Source: a virus. Taken from it: 64,000 nucleotides of DNA. This document shows positions 3,535-31,854 of the stretch, one piece after another (position 1 is the first letter of the stretch; each line of letters begins with the position of its first letter). The position numbers were made by a program, and so were the translations under genes. The stretch is taken from positions 8,742 to 72,741 of IMG/VR virus record IMGVR_UViG_3300033429_000001, one strand, 5' to 3'. The notes under the pieces are model-generated. The model saw nothing but the letters and a program-made list of their open reading frames with translations. It did not search any database and was not told where the DNA came from.

Positions 3535-5004
3535 ATGACAACCAAAAACCAAAAACAATTACCCGCTGTAGTTCCTGACAAGCTACAGCCCCACAACGTG
3601 GAGGCTGAGGAGGCGGTGATCGGCTCGCTACTCATCGACCCGGACGCCATTATCCGGGTGGCTACGTTCCTGAACGGCCCGGATTTCTTCATTGAGCGAC
3701 ACGGCATGGTCTTTGACGCGATTCAGGCGTTGAGCGCCCGCAATCAGCCCGCTGACCTGGTTACTCTGGCCGATGAGTTAGAGCGCCGGGGGGAGCTGCG
3801 GGAGGTTGGAGGGGGGGCTTATTTGACGAGCCTTATCAATCAAACTCCAACCTCGATTCACGTGGAATATTACGGGCGTATTGTTGAGCGCTGCGCTGTC
3901 CTGCGGCGGCTGATAAATGCGGCAGGCCAGATTTCCAGATTGGCCTACCGGGATCAGGAGGCTGACGCTATGGAGGTGGTTAATCGGGCCGAGGAGATCA
4001 TTTTTAATGTGTCGCCTGGCGGGGACAAACATGGGTTACAGCATGTAAGTGTAGCGGTGCAGGAGCTACTAGATCAAGTAAATTATTTACAAAATCATAA
4101 GGGCCAGGTTGTGGGGCTACCCACCGGCCTTACTGACCTGGACAAGCTGATAGGCGGCTTGCAGCGTTCAGATATGGTCGTGGTGGCAGGTAGACCGGGG
4201 ATGGGAAAATCGAGTCTTTCCCTGAATGTAGCCCACCATGCGACCCGGAAATTAAACAAGCGAGTAGCTATTTTTAGCCTGGAAATGTCAAAAGTTCAGT
4301 TAGTGCAGCGGCTAGTCAGCGCAGAGACGGGTATTGATAGTTTTCGTATTCGCGTGGGTGACATCCGAGGGAATGAATGGCCGACATTTATAGCAGCGTC
4401 TAAGATAATCCACGACGCGCCTATTTTCATTGACGACACCCCGGCTATCTCGGCGATGGAGCTTAGGGCCAAAGCTCGCCGTTTGCATGCCGAGTATGGC
4501 CTTGATTTGCTCATTGTGGACTACCTACAACTGATGACTGGCGACCGCAAAAGCGAGAATCGGCAACAGGAGATTAGCTATATCTCACGCTCGATCAAGG
4601 CCCTGGCCAGAGAGTTGAATATCCCGATTCTTGCTTTGAGTCAATTGTCAAGGGAGTGTGAGAAGCGGCATGACAAGCGGCCACACTTGAGCGATTTGAG
4701 AGACTCCGGAAGCATCGAGCAGGATAGCGACGTGGTTATCTTTATCTATCGTGATGACGTTTACAATCCTGATACTGAATTTCCAGACCTGGCCGAGCTT
4801 ATAGTGGGGAAACATCGAGGCGGGCCGACAGGTATGTTCTCTGTGTATTTCCGTAAGCCGCTTTGCCAGTTTGTTGATCTGGAAATCCATCACCAACAAC
4901 TTGAACCCGCCCCCGGCACGCCGGCAGCCAACGGCAACGGGCGCGGGCCTGCGGGGCCTGCGGTGACTGGGAACGGGACGATTGTCAGGGAAAAGAGGTT
5001 GTAA
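3535..5004 (+). CDS. dnaB: Replicative DNA helicase
   Basis: PHNVEAEEAVIG, Walker A GRPGMGKS, FSLEMS, DYLQL, LSQLSR, DLRDSGSIEQDSD; AGGAG RBS before ATG 3535. Confidence 0.97.
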   Translation: MTTKNQKQLPAVVPDKLQPHNVEAEEAVIGSLLIDPDAIIRVATFLNGPDFFIERHGMVFDAIQALSARNQPADLVTLADELERRGELREVGGGAYLTSLINQTPTSIHVEYYGRIVERCAVLRRLINAAGQISRLAYRDQEADAMEVVNRAEEIIFNVSPGGDKHGLQHVSVAVQELLDQVNYLQNHKGQVVGLPTGLTDLDKLIGGLQRSDMVVVAGRPGMGKSSLSLNVAHHATRKLNKRVAIFSLEMSKVQLVQRLVSAETGIDSFRIRVGDIRGNEWPTFIAASKIIHDAPIFIDDTPAISAMELRAKARRLHAEYGLDLLIVDYLQLMTGDRKSENRQQEISYISRSIKALARELNIPILALSQLSRECEKRHDKRPHLSDLRDSGSIEQDSDVVIFIYRDDVYNPDTEFPDLAELIVGKHRGGPTGMFSVYFRKPLCQFVDLEIHHQQLEPAPGTPAANGNGRGPAGPAVTGNGTIVREKRL

Positions 5005-12888: not shown

Positions 12889-12972
12889 ATTATAACATAC
12901 TTATGCCGTAAACACAAGTGGAAGTTTCGCTGAATGAAACAAAAACAAACAAAATTTGATAATTTTAAGGTT
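12889..12972 (-). promoter_or_regulatory. Leftward promoter module, copy B
   Basis: Minus strand TTGTGT-17-TATAAT; near-identical to 14080-14162. Confidence 0.75.
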
Positions 12973-13846
12973 AAACGATGTAGGCAAGAGCAGACTTGAG
13001 GGCCAGGGCTGCGGCGGTACACTGGTCGCGCTTGAAGTTCTTTCCCAGTGCATTCCAGGCTTCGGCGGCCTGTTGCCAAAAATTGATTTGATTATTAAGT
13101 ACTTCGTGAGGCTTATTACCGCTTGTTGGCGGGATAGTTGTTGATGGTAGAGGCGGGTCTGCTGGAACTTCTGTTGGTTGGTCGTTGACGCTAATTTGAC
13201 CGCCAAACAACGGGGCGTCAAACAAGGTGGCCTGGGCCTGCTGCTGGAACAATTCGCCGCAGACTCTACGGAACCATGCCGGGGTAGGGCTGGTGTTGTC
13301 TCGAAGCTTGCGGATGGCTAACATTTGGAAGTTGGAGTCAAGGTCGGCTTGGGAAATGATTTGAGCGTAGCCTAGACCAATGTCGCCGGTTCTAACTAAG
13401 TCTTGAAGGTCATCACGAAGCTTCAGAAGCTTGAGACGAAATTCAACTCTTACGGAACTGACACCGGCTTGCTTGGAACACTTTTTAGCGTCCCACCCGT
13501 AAAGGCTAATCCGGCTGGCGTAAGCGTTGGCCTCGTCGATGGGGTCGAGGTCGTCGCGGCTGACATTTTCGGTGAGCATAACGGCGCTGGCTTCTTCATC
13601 GTTGAGGCTAACGACGATACACGGAACCTCTGACCAGTTCAGGAGTTCAATGGCTCGTGTACGACGCTCGCCGGCAACTATCTGGTACATTTCCGTGCTG
13701 TCTATATGGCGCACGGTAATCGGCTGAATTAGGCCATTCTCGCTGATACTGTTAGCCAGTTCTTGCAGGGCCTTTGGGTCAAAGCGAGTGCGGTCATTGT
13801 TGCCGGGTACTATGAGGGTTGTGTCAATCATTTTGATGTTGGACAT
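12971..13846 (-). CDS. parB: ParB/Spo0J family protein
   Basis: LQELANSISENGLIQPITVR, YQIVAGERRTRA, ENVSRDDLDPIDEA, HTH. Confidence 0.92.
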   Translation of the reverse strand: MSNIKMIDTTLIVPGNNDRTRFDPKALQELANSISENGLIQPITVRHIDSTEMYQIVAGERRTRAIELLNWSEVPCIVVSLNDEEASAVMLTENVSRDDLDPIDEANAYASRISLYGWDAKKCSKQAGVSSVRVEFRLKLLKLRDDLQDLVRTGDIGLGYAQIISQADLDSNFQMLAIRKLRDNTSPTPAWFRRVCGELFQQQAQATLFDAPLFGGQISVNDQPTEVPADPPLPSTTIPPTSGNKPHEVLNNQINFWQQAAEAWNALGKNFKRDQCTAAALALKSALAYIV

Positions 13847-14040
13847 TATAATTGCTCACTTTTGCCGTTTGACCAGATGGCTTCTTCTCTCTGAAAAACA
13901 TCGACTGCAAACCAGAAGTTATCTTCTTCTGCTACGTGGTATTCTATGTGACCTTCTTTGTCGTCACTATAAACGATGAAGTTATCATCTGATTTTAATG
14001 ATTTTTCTTTTGCTAATTTACTTGCTTTTCCGTAGGTCAT
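13846..14040 (-). CDS. Hypothetical protein
   Basis: AAGGAG RBS; TAATG coupling to parB. Confidence 0.7.
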   Translation of the reverse strand: MTYGKASKLAKEKSLKSDDNFIVYSDDKEGHIEYHVAEEDNFWFAVDVFQREEAIWSNGKSEQL

Positions 14041-14079
14041 AATTTTTGTCTCCTTAAAAAGTAATATCTAACTATGAAT

Positions 14080-14162
14080 AGTATAGCATACTTATGCTGT
14101 AAACACAAGTGGAAGTTTCAGTAGGTGAAACAAAAACAAACAAAAATTGATAATTTTAAGGT
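14080..14162 (-). promoter_or_regulatory. Leftward promoter module, copy C
   Basis: Minus strand TTGTGT-17-TATACT; palindrome AGCATA-CT-TATGCT in the spacer; GTTTC-N7-GAAAC upstream. Confidence 0.75.
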
Positions 14163-14187
14163 AAAATACTAAACACAGGAACTGAAC

Positions 14188-14697
14188 ATGGCCAGTAAAG
14201 AGGCTCTAATGGAACTGAGGCGGTCTCTGATCGCTGCCCTTCTATCTGCTGACCCGAGAATTACGCAACGGCAGATATTGACCGCATTGGAGAGAAAGGG
14301 ACTATTTAACCCAGATTCGGGGAATCCCTATTCTGTGGGCACCATCAACACGGACATCAAGGTCATAAAAGTGCAATGGCGCGAGCGGGCAGGGATAGAT
14401 GCAGAGGGCTGGTTGAGCGAGGTTTTGGCCAAACTTGACGAATTGGAAAAAAAGGGCTGGACTACGGGAAAGCCTGATTTGGTACTGAAGTGTATTCAGG
14501 AGCGCAATAAATTACTGGGATTGTACTCCCCCTCCAGGCAAGAAATCACCGGTGCCGGTGGCGGCCCGATAAAGACAGAGGATGCAACCCTTACCGACGA
14601 AGAGCGAATTAATAGAATTGCAGCCATATTTGACCGGGCAAGAGCTAAACGAGACAGGCAAGCTGACACACAACAAGAAAAGTTGCCAGGCGAATAA
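14188..14697 (+). CDS. terS: Terminase small subunit (putative)
   Basis: N-terminal HTH, ERNKLLGL, and C-terminal EITGAGGGPI motif typical of TerS; lies upstream of TerL. Confidence 0.75.
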   Translation: MASKEALMELRRSLIAALLSADPRITQRQILTALERKGLFNPDSGNPYSVGTINTDIKVIKVQWRERAGIDAEGWLSEVLAKLDELEKKGWTTGKPDLVLKCIQERNKLLGLYSPSRQEITGAGGGPIKTEDATLTDEERINRIAAIFDRARAKRDRQADTQQEKLPGE

Positions 14698-14711
14698 TTG
14701 CATGGTATACT
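14683..14711 (+). promoter_or_regulatory. Promoter of the TIGR-like cassette
   Basis: TTGCCA (14683-14688), 17 nt, extended -10 TGgTATACT (14703-14711). Confidence 0.7.
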
Positions 14712-14716
14712 CTCAA

Positions 14717-14797
14717 TGTTCGTGAGTGGTATCAAAATTGTAAAAAACCGTTTTGGGGAGTGCAGGCCACTCGCGAACACCCAAGGCGGTTTTTTTT
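14717..14797 (+). promoter_or_regulatory. Attenuator-like leader (A-B-A'-B'-polyT)
   Basis: TGTTCGTGAGTGG/CCACTCGCGAACA interleaved with AAAAAACCGTTTTGGG/CCCAAGGCGGTTTTTT. Confidence 0.7.
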
Positions 14798-14826
14798 ATT
14801 GCGTTGTAGGCGAGGCAGGCGAAGAT

Positions 14827-15450
14827 ATGGAAACAAAAGAAGATATGGCAAAGCAGAGCAAAATGACGAAGGGAAAAATTACCATTGACGTGCGTGACTG
14901 GCAAAAAGAATTTGCCGAGATAGAGCCGGATTTAACCGGCGATGACCCGATAATTGACCTTGCCCTGACAGGATTAAAACCACAGCAAGCGGGCAGGATG
15001 ATAACCATCGCCGGAGAGCGTGGTGATTTAAAAGACTTTCCGGGTTCAAAGCTTTTGCTGATGGTCGGGGGAGCTAATTTCTTTAGTAGTCACGTGGCGC
15101 GGGCCAAGCGAGAAATTACGCTGAAGAACGGCAAGACCTTTAGCGGTCGGGCCTACATCGCCCCGGCTCGTGAGGTGGCGGGAGAGGATGAGGAGGATCA
15201 GTCTGATAATGATACCCATCTACAACATGCTGCCTCATCCCTTCCTGCCTCAAATTGGCTTGATGAGAAAGTAGTCAGCACAATCGACCCGGCTACTTTT
15301 GACCGGGCCGTCAGGTATCTTTTCAACCAAGTGACGGGTAATATCTGGAAGCGTTTTTTACACATTGCCGAACACAAGCCGGGTGAAGTGGAACGGATAG
15401 CCGGCGAGTTGAAAGATAGGATAGATGAGATGGTAGAGCGGTTGAGTTAG
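14827..15450 (+). CDS. Hypothetical protein co-transcribed with the TIGR-like array; contains one guide unit in its acidic linker
   Basis: 207-aa ORF between the leader and the array; no family recognised. Confidence 0.7.
   Translation: METKEDMAKQSKMTKGKITIDVRDWQKEFAEIEPDLTGDDPIIDLALTGLKPQQAGRMITIAGERGDLKDFPGSKLLLMVGGANFFSSHVARAKREITLKNGKTFSGRAYIAPAREVAGEDEEDQSDNDTHLQHAASSLPASNWLDEKVVSTIDPATFDRAVRYLFNQVTGNIWKRFLHIAEHKPGEVERIAGELKDRIDEMVERLS
15186..15240 (+). ncRNA. Orphan tigRNA-like unit inside the upstream ORF
   Basis: Stem GGATGAGG/CCTCATCC enclosing TCA-gtctgataa-TGATACCCA-tctacaaca-TG. Confidence 0.75.
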
Positions 15451-15960
15451 CCAGCCGGCGCGTAATACCCAAGCATCTTGTGCTACCAATCGCAACCGGT
15501 GGGGCGGCCACATGCCGCGTGATACCCAAACTTCATGTGCCGCCCCACCTTAAAAGCTTACTGAGGGCCAAATCCTAAGTGATGCCCAGTCCAACGGTGC
15601 CCTTGACAAAATCCGAGGTTGAGCCAGGTTGAACGTGATACCCACGATAATTGTGTTCAACCCCGGCTTTTGGAGAGAAGCCAGTAGCATAGTGATACCC
15701 ATGAAACGTGTGCTTCTCTCCCAAATCAAGGCAATTGGTCTTGACCAGATTAGCGGTGATACCCACCTAGACAGTGAAAGGACAAAAATAATGAACCAAA
15801 GTGAATGTGATACCCAGAATCAATGTGTTCAAATTGAAGGCAACAACGGAGAGGGCCAGGAATCCTGTGATACCCAGTTAATGGACGTCCCCTCCGACGA
15901 TAACGGGACGGGCGTCCATAAAAGTCATGATACCCACTCCCCATGTGACACCCGTCCCGA
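15440..15960 (+). ncRNA. Stem-loop TIGR-like array, nine tandem dual-spacer guide units
   Basis: CCA-N9-TGATACCCA-N9-TG with CCA at 15451, 15508, 15568, 15624, 15681, 15745, 15796, 15856 and 15916; each unit is flanked by a unit-specific inverted repeat. Confidence 0.88.
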
Positions 15961-16720
15961 CCCAAAGCCCCGCAAGCATCCCCACCTATGGCAAGCCTAT
16001 CTATGGTGGTACGAGTTGATGGAAATGCGCAAGCGTCACAACTCGCGTATTTCCTCAATCGAAAATGGCAAGAGCAATCTTGACGCGGGATTTGAACGGG
16101 AAATGATAGCGATGCTTCAGCTTGACATCCTGGTTGACCCGAAGAATAAGACCCAGCGAGCTATGTCTGCCAAGCAGATAATGGTGAATTATGGCGAGGC
16201 TGTTGGGCCAATATGGGACTGGTGTTTGGCCCATAAGGGAATGGGGGAAAGCCTGACTGCCCAACTATTGGCCCAGATAGACGACATCAACAATTCCCCA
16301 TCGGTGTCCAGTCTGTGGAGGTTTGCCGGGTTCAGTATTGACGGGGGGAAGGCAGAGAAAAATCATAAAGGGGTCAAGTCGCCCTTTAACCACAAACTCA
16401 AGGGTATCTGTTTCAATATTGCCGATCAATTCATCCGGCAGCAAACGCCGTACTATGTCGATATTTATTATGCCGAGAAACAACGCCAGCGAGAATTATA
16501 TCCCGAACCAGTTTGTCGGGGCTGTGGAGAGTTGGCAGTACAGAAACGGAAAAAGGTTAGAGGCAAAATGGTGATGACCTGGGGCTGTCCCGAGAATGGC
16601 AAGCACGTTGTAAATTATACCGATGCCCACCTGCATATTAGAGGGTGGCGTAAGATGATAAAGGAATTTCTTAAGGACTTGTGGGTAGCGTGGCGCAGGA
16701 TTGAGGGTCAGATAGAATGA
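15791..16720 (+). CDS. tasA: Nop-domain (IS110 C-terminal-like) RNA-binding protein without nuclease domain, TasA-like
   Basis: GAAAGGA RBS before ATG 15791; coiled coil, then KGMGESLTAQLLAQIDDI...SSLWRFAGF, FNHKLK...IADQFIR, YYAEK, HLHIRGWRKMIKEFLKDLWVAW. No DEDD RuvC and no IS110 catalytic SG loop. Confidence 0.8.
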   Translation: MNQSECDTQNQCVQIEGNNGEGQESCDTQLMDVPSDDNGTGVHKSHDTHSPCDTRPDPKPRKHPHLWQAYLWWYELMEMRKRHNSRISSIENGKSNLDAGFEREMIAMLQLDILVDPKNKTQRAMSAKQIMVNYGEAVGPIWDWCLAHKGMGESLTAQLLAQIDDINNSPSVSSLWRFAGFSIDGGKAEKNHKGVKSPFNHKLKGICFNIADQFIRQQTPYYVDIYYAEKQRQRELYPEPVCRGCGELAVQKRKKVRGKMVMTWGCPENGKHVVNYTDAHLHIRGWRKMIKEFLKDLWVAWRRIEGQIE

Positions 16721-16744
16721 GATAAACACAGCAACGCAAACCCA

Positions 16745-16778
16745 AGAGGGCCAGAGTTATCTGACCCTCTTTTATTTT
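16745..16778 (+). terminator. Terminator closing the TIGR-like cassette
   Basis: AGAGGGCCAGA/TCTGACCCTCT hairpin followed by TTTATTTT. Confidence 0.65.
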
Positions 16779-16805
16779 GACGCCAGCCAATCAATATGAT
16801 AAAGT
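16777..16805 (+). promoter_or_regulatory. Putative promoter for terL
   Basis: TTGACG-17-TAAAGT with TGn extension, just before ATG 16815. Confidence 0.5.
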
Positions 16806-16814
16806 ATCATTAGC

Positions 16815-18362
16815 ATGCAAATACCGACGAAGAGCGAATTGATAGAGTTGCAGCCGTATCTGACGAAATCGCAACTGGAAGAAATAGACAAACTGGCGAA
16901 TGAGATCGAGATACCGCTTTGGTATCCCAATCCTGACCACGAAGACGGCTCCCCGAATCCTCAGCGATTGGCCTATGAGAGCGAGGCTGACATCTTGGGG
17001 TATGGCGGTTCGGCGGGATCGGGCAAAACGGACCTACTCCTCGGCGTCGCTGCCACCCAGCAAACCAACTCCGTAATCTTCCGCCGCGTCTTTCCCAATC
17101 ATCGAGGAAACATTGAGCGCAGCCGAGAGATATTTAACCCCACCGGTGTCCCTCATGGCAAAAACAGCTTCAATGAACAGTTTCACCGTTGGAAATTAGC
17201 AAGCGGTAAACAAGTAGAATTCGAAGCCTGCCAACACGAAAAGGACAAAAACAACCAACGCGGACGCCCCCGAGATTTCTATGGCTTTGATGAGGCCACC
17301 GAATTCACCCGCTCTCAATTTGATTTTATCATCGGCTGGAATCGCTCGACAGACCCCAACCAACGATGTCGAATCATTCTTACTTTTAATCCCCCCACCG
17401 ACGAGGTCGGCTCCTGGGTGGTGGATTTCTTTTTACCCTGGATTTCCTACCTTTTCCCCAAAGACTTTGAGCATCCCCGCCCGGCCAGGCCGGGGGAGTT
17501 GCGATGGTATGCCACCGTCGAGGGACAAGAGACCGAATGCACAGACGGAACCCCATTTGAGCGTGATGGGCTTCTCGTCAAGCCCCTTAGCCGGACTTTC
17601 ATCCCAGGCAAACTCAAAGACAATCCACATTTGATAAATACCAATTATGAGGCTATCCTTCAGTCACTGCCCGAGCCGCTACGTAGCCAGGTGCTACACG
17701 GCGATTTTGCGGCAGCCAAAGAGCGCGACCCCTGGCAGGTGATTCCCGTCGAATGGGTCAAGCTGGCTCAAAAGCGGTGGCTGGAAATGGAGAGGCCGGC
17801 GGTGCCTATTTCCGGTACGGGGGTTGATGTGGCCCGAGGAGGCCAGGACAAGACAACAAAATGCGATAGGTACGACAATTATTTTGATGAGGTCAAGGTA
17901 TGGCCTGGGGTGGCCACCCCAGACGGTCCGACGGTGGCCGCGTTGGTCGAGGGCGAATTGGAGGGCGAACCTGCCTACATCAACATTGATGTAATCGGCG
18001 TTGGGTCGTCTGCCTATGACAGCTTGAAGCCAATGTATAAGCGGGTCAACCCGATCAATGCCGGGGAGAGGTCAGACTACCGGGACCGCTCTGGCAAATA
18101 CAAAATGAGGAATGTTCGGGCGGAATATTACTGGCGGATGCGGGAGGCGTTGGACCCGGATCACGGGGAAGACCCGGCGCTGCCACCGGGTAACGAGGTG
18201 GTAGCAGATTTGTGTTCGGCTCGGTATAAGGTGACGACAGCGGGGATACAGATTGAGAGCAAGGAGGAGATTAAGGAGCGGATAGGCCGGAGTCCTGATG
18301 TTGGGGAGGCTATTTTGCTGGCGAATTATCCGGGGGAGCCGCAGGGGATATTCTTTGGATAA
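16815..18362 (+). CDS. terL: Terminase large subunit
   Basis: YGGSAGSGKT Walker A, FDEATEF Walker B, TFNPP, GVDVARGGQD nuclease motif, IGRSPDVGEA. Confidence 0.95.
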   Translation: MQIPTKSELIELQPYLTKSQLEEIDKLANEIEIPLWYPNPDHEDGSPNPQRLAYESEADILGYGGSAGSGKTDLLLGVAATQQTNSVIFRRVFPNHRGNIERSREIFNPTGVPHGKNSFNEQFHRWKLASGKQVEFEACQHEKDKNNQRGRPRDFYGFDEATEFTRSQFDFIIGWNRSTDPNQRCRIILTFNPPTDEVGSWVVDFFLPWISYLFPKDFEHPRPARPGELRWYATVEGQETECTDGTPFERDGLLVKPLSRTFIPGKLKDNPHLINTNYEAILQSLPEPLRSQVLHGDFAAAKERDPWQVIPVEWVKLAQKRWLEMERPAVPISGTGVDVARGGQDKTTKCDRYDNYFDEVKVWPGVATPDGPTVAALVEGELEGEPAYINIDVIGVGSSAYDSLKPMYKRVNPINAGERSDYRDRSGKYKMRNVRAEYYWRMREALDPDHGEDPALPPGNEVVADLCSARYKVTTAGIQIESKEEIKERIGRSPDVGEAILLANYPGEPQGIFFG

Positions 18363-31267: not shown

Positions 31268-31854
31268 TTCTGGTAATACTAATCATTGTTTTTATTATTA
31301 TGATCGGAGTAGGATTCTTTGAGTCTGCAATTATTCCTCAAGCCTCATCGCTAAAGAGTCAAGTTGTTAATGAAGAGTTTGACAATCTGGACGGTGAGGG
31401 AGAAATAAAATGGTATGATGGTTTTTTTACCTGGAACCCTACCGCGCAGGTCACAGGCTATCCGTTCATTACCGGGTCAGTTACCATTCGTTGGGATGAC
31501 TTTGACACCGGCTTAATGGCAGTATCCGTACCATACACGACCACCAAACTGGTAGTAGAATTAGAGTTGCGAGGCACTAAAACATACACTCAAATATTGA
31601 CTAGCGATTTGCCTGGTGCATCTCAACCGCAAACAGGAATTTTCGATAAGTTGATTTGGGTATGGATAGATGTTGAGCCAGGTGACTACGATGAGCACAT
31701 TAAAGGATATTGGTCAGTCAAGGAAGAGAGAATACCTTTACAATTTGTCAGAAACGGCGAGATTGTACAGCCAGTGACAAACTTCGTTCTTTATCGAGGT
31801 GGCCTGACCATTCCTCAATTGCTGTACTTGCCGGTAGTGATGAAGGCTAATTGA
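31228..31854 (+). CDS. Exported/membrane protein with Chloroflexota-type C-terminal LYLPVVMK motif
   Basis: N-terminal TM; ends LLYLPVVMKAN. Confidence 0.7.
   Translation: MGIKEWFNKQKFLILVILIIVFIIMIGVGFFESAIIPQASSLKSQVVNEEFDNLDGEGEIKWYDGFFTWNPTAQVTGYPFITGSVTIRWDDFDTGLMAVSVPYTTTKLVVELELRGTKTYTQILTSDLPGASQPQTGIFDKLIWVWIDVEPGDYDEHIKGYWSVKEERIPLQFVRNGEIVQPVTNFVLYRGGLTIPQLLYLPVVMKAN

Follow-up and report, generated by a model that had tools for sequence, protein, structure and literature searches.

Arrays of tandem interspaced guide RNAs (TIGR) that accompany TasA, a Tas protein free of nuclease domains, have been described in a stem-loop form, and their describers consider that forms with a conserved loop are possibly intermediate (Faure et al., 2025; PMC12045711). 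Going by published descriptions, the systems closest to the one reported here are the stem-loop TIGR-TasA set made up of PlTasA from a Peromyscus leucopus gut contig, BlTasA from Bifidobacterium longum and MbTasA from Minisyncoccota (Faure et al., 2025; Xu et al., 2026 preprint; Guan et al., 2026 preprint). Targeting of both strands by TIGR-Tas is published. In addition, one preprint describes reversible, RNA-guided repression by TasA and its binding of DNA in electrophoretic mobility shift assays, describes stem-loop systems as lacking the Tyr/His loop, and places guides inside the 5' end of the tas frame, in disordered regions (Xu et al., 2026; 10.64898/2026.09.09.750476). Here we describe a locus in a 64,000-nt stretch of viral DNA (the window), which corresponds to bases 8742-72741 of the IMG/VR record IMGVR_UViG_3300033429_000001 (72,741 nt, rated 85% complete); all positions are given in window numbering. 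On the + strand, at about 14.7-16.8 kb, there is a cassette consisting of a gene of no recognised family (orfU), ten guide units and a tasA gene. We conclude that this is very probably a stem-loop TIGR-TasA system carried by a tailed phage. An earlier first-pass annotation, made from the letters of the DNA, had already read the locus as TIGR-Tas with TasA, and both the protein and the array bear that reading out.

The likeness to PlTasA, BlTasA and MbTasA extends to most features of the locus. The protein has a Nop domain and no nuclease, and the array is a tandem row of hairpin units, each holding two spacers of ~9 nt framed by boxes C and D. Palindromic flanks of variable sequence stand where edge repeats would be, the loop is 9 nt long, some units lie within the 5' end of the tas gene, the short protein tail lacks the Tyr/His dyad, and the setting is a phage. 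The CCA and UG of our units are the boxes quoted for ParTasR, whereas box C is CUU in the PateTasR structure of the preprint. The loop repeat is conserved, as it is in dual-repeat arrays, which is the form that Faure et al. call intermediate. Unlike the published stem-loop systems, the locus has an extra guide inside a partner gene, and it is known from sequence alone. Because the family, its stem-loop form, the placing of guides within genes and the action of TasA as a repressor have already been published, and an NCBI naming model exists, the locus is in the first place one more well-resolved TIGR-TasA example beside several thousand catalogued. What we add is a conserved partner gene that bears a guide, spacer turnover inside stems, a protein tail that tracks array type within the clade, and a duplicated junction in front of the terminase gene.

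The unit pattern CCA-N9-TGATACCCA-N9-TG, with up to two mismatches allowed, matched the window ten times, always on the + strand; 100 shuffled windows gave a mean of 0.56 matches and a maximum of 3, and none reached ten. Across the whole 72,741-nt record there were 10 forward matches, 0 reverse matches and 0 control matches. Nine tandem units had been listed in the first-pass annotation, and all nine were recovered (units 1-9 in Table 1), six with no mismatch and three with one. Their spacing, previously given as 51-64 bp, is 57, 60, 56, 57, 64, 51, 60 and 60 nt, and the 18 N9 strings, the two loop variants (in the first and third units) and the CG ending of the eighth unit all agree with what had been listed. 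The tenth match, unit 0, was absent from that list and lies, with one mismatch, inside the upstream gene orfU. Each unit is internally symmetric (CCA-N9-TG, ATAC, CCA-N9-TG), such that the full order in the RNA is stem, CCA (box C), 9-nt spacer A, UG (box D), AUAC, CCA, 9-nt spacer B, UG and stem. One unit is placed in the disordered linker of orfU, six are intergenic, and three are within the 5' end of tasA; units 7-9 are exactly 60 nt apart and stay in the tasA frame. A search of positions 14000-17000 against Rfam (E <= 1) returned no family.

Each unit had also been said to be closed by a stem of its own, with the structure kept while the sequence varies. In an alignment of the ten units that took in 14 flanking nucleotides at either end, we drew 10 pairs directly outside CCA and TG. 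Pairing was found in 72.0% of the 100 cells, as compared with 46.9 +/- 4.2% in shuffles (0 of 500 as high) and 43-54% in slid registers, and each of the ten pairs varies in both of its partners. The units being paralogues whose stems are unrelated in sequence, the structure is kept without the sequence, as had been claimed. The stems have 9-13 pairs in units 2, 4, 5 and 9 and 5-8 pairs in units 3, 6 and 8, and the stem of unit 0 is offset. Flanks that are variable but palindromic, in place of edge repeats, are what is expected of a stem-loop TIGR array. We note that spacer A of unit 4 is complementary to the 3' stem arm of the same unit (17 of 18 positions) and similar to its 5' arm, as if arm and spacer were duplicates.

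Three of the units code for the N-terminus of TasA and another codes for part of OrfU, as might be expected if the repeats were repetitive coding or regulatory sequence rather than guide RNAs. We consider this extremely improbable, because six units are intergenic, the translated stretches are predicted to be disordered or lie outside the conserved core, and the N9 segments change in relatives while their flanks stay.

The tasA gene starts at an ATG with GAAAGGA 8 nt upstream, and its frame is open to the end of the gene. The first-pass annotation had described its product as a nuclease-less protein with a coiled coil and a Nop domain and had proposed profile and structure searches; these place it in the Tas family by both sequence and fold. 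The protein matches the NCBIfam model NF052498.1, 'TIGR-Tas system RNA-guided endonuclease' (E 1.8e-44; 152.3 bits with a cut-off of 100; residues 72-302 of 309), and phrog_4285 (E 6.9e-35). Among solved structures, a phmmer search found TasR (9mty_A, E 3.5e-23) and TasH (E 1.6e-4). The sole Pfam match is to PF02371, the IS110 C-terminal domain, over 34 residues and below the cut-off (E 0.09). An AlphaFold model of the core (15971-16720; 37 homologues) has a predicted local distance difference test score (pLDDT) of 95.1 and a predicted template modelling score of 0.88. It shows the fold of a coiled coil followed by a Nop C-terminal domain. Foldseek ranked TasR first for this model (E 1.7e-10, TMq 0.65), then TasH (E 8.6e-8) and then the IS621 recombinase, and the ten top rows are all TasR or TasH chains (E 1.7e-10 to 8.4e-6, TMq 0.55-0.68). 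No RuvC or HNH family was found in Pfam, PHROGs or NCBIfam. Because just ~60 residues, coded by guide units 7-9, precede the conserved core, we identify the protein as TasA. It keeps all 22 invariant columns of the family alignment and most of the nearly invariant ones, and its C-terminal tail beyond the last helix is 7 residues long. In addition, TasA has a Cys-x2-Cys ... Cys ... His beta-hairpin insertion (16520-16610; strands at model residues 190-205), which is present in many members of its clade and absent in others; it may be a zinc-binding module in the region that the preprint calls insertion 2.

Table 1. Features of the cassette and its immediate surroundings, in window coordinates.
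Feature	Position	Strand	Remarks
Upstream ORF (open reading frame), 169 aa (amino acids), in small-terminase-subunit position	14188..14697	+	weak family matches only; outside the system
Left copy of duplicated junction	14582..14665, 43-nt core 14592-14634	+	other frame: relic of TerL N-terminus
Promoter-like site	14683..14711	+	TTGCCA, 17 nt, TATACT, TG before the -10; 10/12 consensus match only
Hairpin between A-run and U-run, two-way-terminator shape	14742..14803	+	16-nt arms, 88% complementary; between upstream ORF and orfU
orfU, partner gene, 207 aa	14827..15450	+	no recognised family; ends one base before unit 1
Guide unit 0 with stem	15184..15243, core 15198-15229	+	1 mismatch; offset stem, fold -28.7 kcal/mol; inside orfU disordered linker
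Guide unit 1	15451..15482	+	loop variant TAATACCCA; weak stem
Guide unit 2 with 10-bp stem	15498..15549, core 15508-15539	+	
Guide unit 3 with 6-bp stem	15562..15605, core 15568-15599	+	loop variant TGATGCCCA
Guide unit 4 with long interrupted stem	15609..15670, core 15624-15655	+	
Guide unit 5 with stem	15668..15725, core 15681-15712	+	
Guide unit 6	15745..15776	+	5-bp stem beyond two unpaired positions
tasA, nuclease-free Tas (Nop-domain) protein, 309 aa	15791..16720	+	conserved core from ~15971; short C-terminal tail
Guide unit 7	15796..15827	+	in tasA frame; weak 4-bp stem
Guide unit 8	15847..15896, core 15856-15887	+	in tasA frame; CG ending
Guide unit 9	15904..15959, core 15916-15947	+	in tasA frame; 13-nt stem
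Terminator-like hairpin and U-run	16703..16778	+	12-nt arms, 100% complementary; overlaps tasA end
Right copy of duplicated junction	16815..16895, core 16822-16864	+	at terL start; other frame: relic of upstream ORF C-terminus
terL, large terminase subunit	16815..18362	+	phrog_979, E 1.2e-42; context only

Other RNA-guided systems share parts of this anatomy. TaTasR (PDB 9MTY) and SpTasH (PDB 9W04, 21KL) have the coiled-coil and Nop C-terminal fold in common with our TasA; they carry RuvC or HNH domains, cut DNA and use 36-nt dual-repeat tigRNAs, whereas the protein in the window has no nuclease domain. The IS110/IS621 recombinases have a related RNA-binding fold (8wt9, E 7.6e-3, TMq 0.55) and guides of two segments. 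Unlike them, the window has neither the N-terminal DEDD (RuvC-like) nor the C-terminal catalytic serine domain of IS110 transposases, TasA having no N-terminal domain at all, and it has a many-guide array rather than one bridge RNA and no insertion sequence ends. The box C/D small nucleolar ribonucleoproteins of archaea and eukaryotes (snoRNPs; Nop5, Nop56/58) likewise combine a Nop domain with a box C/D RNA that carries a pair of guide segments (Faure et al., 2025; PMC12045711). Our system differs from them in having no fibrillarin or L7Ae partner and, by analogy with characterised Tas proteins, would have DNA rather than RNA targets. There were no snoRNP structures among the 11 Foldseek matches with E <= 0.001.

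A word-indexed search with TasA gave 276 homologues among 390 candidates. Loci were taken from viral contigs (79, from 94 confirmed relatives among 255 matched stretches), from metagenome contigs (11, from 49 matched stretches) and from a genome collection (2 of the TasA clade, from 89 matched stretches, both in metagenome-assembled genomes). In the related viral and metagenome loci that we examined, the arrays share the CCA...UG frame and the spacers differ. The closest loci with DNA, in which TasA is 49-57% identical (best tblastn segment), carry units framed by hairpins, in which the loop is TGTTACCCA-like and each stem is private to its unit. More distant loci (L010-L022, L024 and L075; TasA 38-52% identical) have dual-repeat arrays with an 18-nt period, in which a TGCGAGCCA-like edge repeat alternates with a TGAAACCCA-like loop repeat. 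They belong to the same clade, have the same CCA/UG frame and 9-nt spacers, and in 8 of them there is an orfU-type partner upstream. They also have a Pro-Tyr ... Gly-His tail on TasA, whereas the window has private stems and no such tail. Thus, one TasA clade spans dual-repeat and stem-loop arrays, and the array in the window keeps the loop repeat and has lost the edge repeat.

The tail was present in 15 of the 17 clade rows with the edge-repeat word and in none of the 10 rows without it, the window included; one of these 10 is an ORF cut by a contig end, and two pairs of rows (L012/L013 and L017/L018) are duplicates. Within the clade, the C-terminal tail of TasA therefore tracks array type. 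As in stem-loop systems, the window TasA lacks the C-terminal Tyr/His processing loop, and the pattern across the clade agrees with the absence of the Tyr/His dyad that the preprint reports for stem-loop systems, which would mean that another enzyme cuts these guides. With both array types in one clade, loss of the Tyr/His tail tracking the switch, and the loop repeat kept, the clade may inform how stem-loop guides arose from dual-repeat guides.

Identical N9 segments in homologous loci would have pointed, as the first-pass annotation stated, to coding repeats and not to spacers. In five aligned homologous arrays of relatives we found the opposite: pairwise identity was 39.6% in spacer columns (285/720), as compared with 90.4% in box and loop columns (506/560) and 81.7% in stem and linker columns (961/1176). 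For the window itself, the evidence for spacer turnover is at the protein level, from the closest TasA relative (71% identical), in which the stem-coded N-terminal residues are kept and the spacer-coded residues differ. The relatives thus show fast spacer turnover inside conserved stems. A comparison of two close relatives (units near L089:122 and L090:713) may indicate how spacers are renewed, since both spacers of a unit can be replaced in an unchanged stem: two units are shared nearly letter for letter, and a third has both spacers swapped inside a nearly unchanged stem. This pattern hints that spacers are replaced as a cassette. Separately, a dual-repeat array (L015:3724-3850) has one spacer pair three times in tandem, which suggests local duplication as one route of array growth.

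Faure et al. describe TasA as having no clear protein associations, the exception being a ParB-like partner in occasional cases (Faure et al., 2025; PMC12045711). In our locus, the gene directly upstream of the main array is orfU. In 13 of 90 related loci, with dual-repeat and stem-loop arrays alike, a profile of orfU found a matching ORF on the same strand immediately before tasA; an orfU-type gene was also seen by eye at a genome-collection locus, and an exhaustive profile search found 328 cluster representatives at E <= 0.001. In the predicted structure of OrfU (pLDDT 87.9), a disordered linker at residues 125-139 joins an N-terminal alpha/beta domain to a helical hairpin at the C-terminus, and guide unit 0 coincides exactly with the low-pLDDT linker. 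In the closest viral relative (L009), a unit occupies the same place in orfU with other spacers and with a compensatory A:U to G:C change in the stem.

We were unable to assign OrfU to any family or fold. No family was found among 50 members in Pfam, bar one chance-level match, nor in PHROGs or NCBIfam; a word-based homologue search found only the protein itself, and a profile search of the PDB gave nothing significant. Foldseek gave nothing significant against the PDB and a viral library. A wide VIA-align search gave a best Z of 4.9, confined to the C-terminal helical hairpin, and with VIA-align on Foldseek's list Z reached at most 2.9, weak rows being winged-helix-like. The best score in the ESM Atlas was 0.88, with unnamed clusters. 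We could not show a likeness of OrfU to ParB: none of the 50 members matches a ParB family in Pfam, hhalign to the ParB-like protein encoded in the window gave a probability of 0.1, and no ParB chains were among the fold matches listed. These comparisons used Pfam, hhalign and fold matches; Faure et al. used HHpred for tasParB. Complex prediction of the TasA core with OrfU scored 0.00 (mark 0.32), which counts neither for nor against binding.

We tentatively suggest, as a possibility that we would not bet on, that orfU is an unrecognised dedicated partner of a large TasA clade, and that its guide acts as a regulatory switch. Cutting the guide out would destroy the orfU message, such that production of the guide would be traded off against production of the partner protein; the same might hold for the three guides within tasA. 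Another proposal is that OrfU is an effector or needed cofactor brought to the target by the guide complex, as Nop5 brings fibrillarin, giving an output beyond a steric block. The position of orfU directly upstream of tasA with both array types, the 328 representatives of its family, and the guide unit kept in its linker at two loci, with a compensatory stem change, are all consistent with such a role. We nonetheless think it unlikely, since several clade members have other genes at the orfU position, OrfU has no recognisable catalytic family or fold, and TasA alone with a tigRNA repressed a reporter in the preprint (Xu et al., 2026). Whichever role it has, the presence of at least 328 representative partner proteins of no known fold, before many arrays, may inform whether TasA works alone.

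By analogy with the characterised systems, we propose that the array transcript would be cut between hairpins into unit-length tigRNAs. The cutting enzyme would probably be a host RNase, because TasA lacks the Tyr/His processing tail. One tigRNA would be held by a TasA dimer, and its two spacers would pair with opposite strands of one 18-bp DNA site. With no nuclease in the complex, the expected outcome is a plain block: the bound complex would stay put and obstruct transcription or replication.

Predicted target sites are 18-mers made from the spacers of one unit, either spacer A followed by the reverse complement of spacer B or the reverse order. Both half-site orders were tried where possible, because a derivation from the '8-nt 3' overhangs' agreed with one order in polarity and with the other in length. 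In a scan of the window with two real and two control orders, at up to 4 mismatches, the best non-self matches had 3 mismatches, and control orders gave them as well as real ones. In the whole 72,741-nt record, half-sites separated by gaps of -3 to 30 matched twice at up to 2 mismatches, against 1.7 expected from 90 mismatched spacer pairs. Nothing in the 72.7 kb assembled for the phage itself matches a guide better than chance, and targets outside the phage, in a host or in competing mobile elements, are therefore most likely.

Among viral contigs, the exact 18-mer of unit 2 (spacer A and the reverse complement of spacer B) occurs in 23 (L117-L139), which form about five unrelated groups: 15 share a primase/helicase gene family, 4 share one small-ORF family, 2 share another, and 2 are singletons. 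In three of the groups the site codes for Asn-Phe-Met-Arg-Gly-Met, each time in a different protein, one of them a primase/helicase. The other order of unit 2 was found in 2 viral contigs, and the first order of units 5, 9, 4 and 8 in 0 each. Guide 2 may possibly be directed at a short sequence, within this peptide, that is found again and again in phages of no relation to one another. The excess is real as a count and indistinguishable here from a chance match multiplied by database redundancy. Xu et al. caution that spacers this short produce numerous spurious matches (Xu et al., 2026 preprint). A search for a second guide yielded one lone 2-mismatch match in 130 fetched loci (903,934 bases) and, in five whole records of phages with the unit 2 site, 2 matches with 3 mismatches for real orders vs 2 for control orders.

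Five records of kin phages (169,725 bases) had 0 matches at up to 2 mismatches. At 3 mismatches there were 6 matches to real orders, as compared with 2 to control orders. Two of the six are a repeated 15-nt exact run of the unit 7 site (the reverse complement of spacer B, then spacer A), at 31712 and 32000 of G008, the record of L101, in which TerL is 64-67% identical to ours. Both lie in a propeller-repeat tail-fibre-like gene, with the mismatches at one edge.

Several findings weigh against a working guide system. The 18-bp spacer-pair sites that the first-pass annotation had proposed to look for did not lead to a natural target for any guide in the scans of the phage's own record, viral contigs and kin phages. 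A search for sequencing runs that contain this stretch listed no RNA run; its sole entry was a DNA run, from which the record probably derives. Two of the ten units (units 1 and 7) have weak stems, with 3-4 contiguous pairs. In unit 2, spacer A begins with four bases that are able to pair with the four at the end of spacer B, and this might hold the unit closed. The word CUU at the stem base, which the preprint describes as a frequent but non-defining processing site (Xu et al., 2026; 10.64898/2026.09.09.750476), is found as CTT in just 4 of the 8 linkers, at positions that are not fixed, with a chance of ~0.26 per linker. Lastly, the promoter-like site lies upstream, not downstream, of the terminator-like hairpin that precedes orfU.

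The weak stems, one variant box D and the lack of a listed RNA run would also fit a decaying relic, in which array and gene are present and no longer work. We regard this as very unlikely, because the tasA frame is intact, all 22 invariant columns are kept, the model is confident and the stems covary. We therefore favour a stem-loop TIGR-TasA system, whose natural targets are the main point worth experiment.

The phage origin of the cassette is indicated by the virus record and by the TerL gene next door. Directly before terL, the cassette is framed by two diverged direct copies of a junction sequence, with 43-nt cores that are 91% identical and weaker similarity for a further ~40 nt. The left copy is carried by the 3' end of the upstream ORF; in another frame, an ORF at 14582-14725 has first residues that parallel the start of TerL. 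In three TerL relatives (75%, 68% and 64% identity) there is no cassette and the upstream gene overlaps terL, by 26, 59 and 98 nt, respectively; in two of the three this gene is the small subunit in Pfam family Terminase_2. Neither tasA nor orfU was found in 15 TerL-related loci. The simplest reading of this arrangement is that the cassette was inserted long ago into the overlap region of the ORF and terL, and was kept because the duplication left both genes whole.

Another reading is that the cassette is mobile and that its guides direct where it inserts itself, like IS110 bridge RNAs. The junction copies, the three relatives with overlapping genes and no cassette, and the relation of the Tas fold to IS110 recombinases are consistent with mobility. 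In another locus (L021), the orfU-array-tasA cassette likewise lies between 33-nt direct repeats, which are promoter-like and 79% identical (2928-2960 and 4935-4967). We consider such a self-inserting element highly improbable, since family and fold searches found no DEDD/RuvC or serine recombinase part in TasA, no guide match above chance occurs at the junction or elsewhere in the record, flanking repeats were absent from 7 of the 9 related loci examined, and a duplication of the overlap region would be selected after any insertion there.

Two hairpins bound the cassette, and a promoter-like site lies upstream of the first (Table 1). Promoter-like sites number 6 in the region, vs 3.4 in shuffles. 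Folding of 14712-14830, which includes the two-way-terminator-shaped hairpin, gave -36.9 kcal/mol (z -2.0), and the terminator-like hairpin at the end of tasA gave -22.5 kcal/mol (z -3.1), with 0 of 200 shuffles as stable.

Host clues were few: TerL is at most 46% identical to those of cultured phages of several hosts, and a search for tRNA genes as a host clue found none. The start of terL has no Shine-Dalgarno-like sequence, and a promoter-like -10 hexamer stops 10 nt short of the ATG (16777-16817), so that the terL message may be nearly leaderless. A ParB-like gene (12971-13846, - strand; TIGR00180, E 2.8e-34; phrog_3264, E 2e-35) lies ~1 kb upstream. Some tasA genes in the literature have ParB-like partners; this gene is on the opposite strand and is not in the tasA operon.

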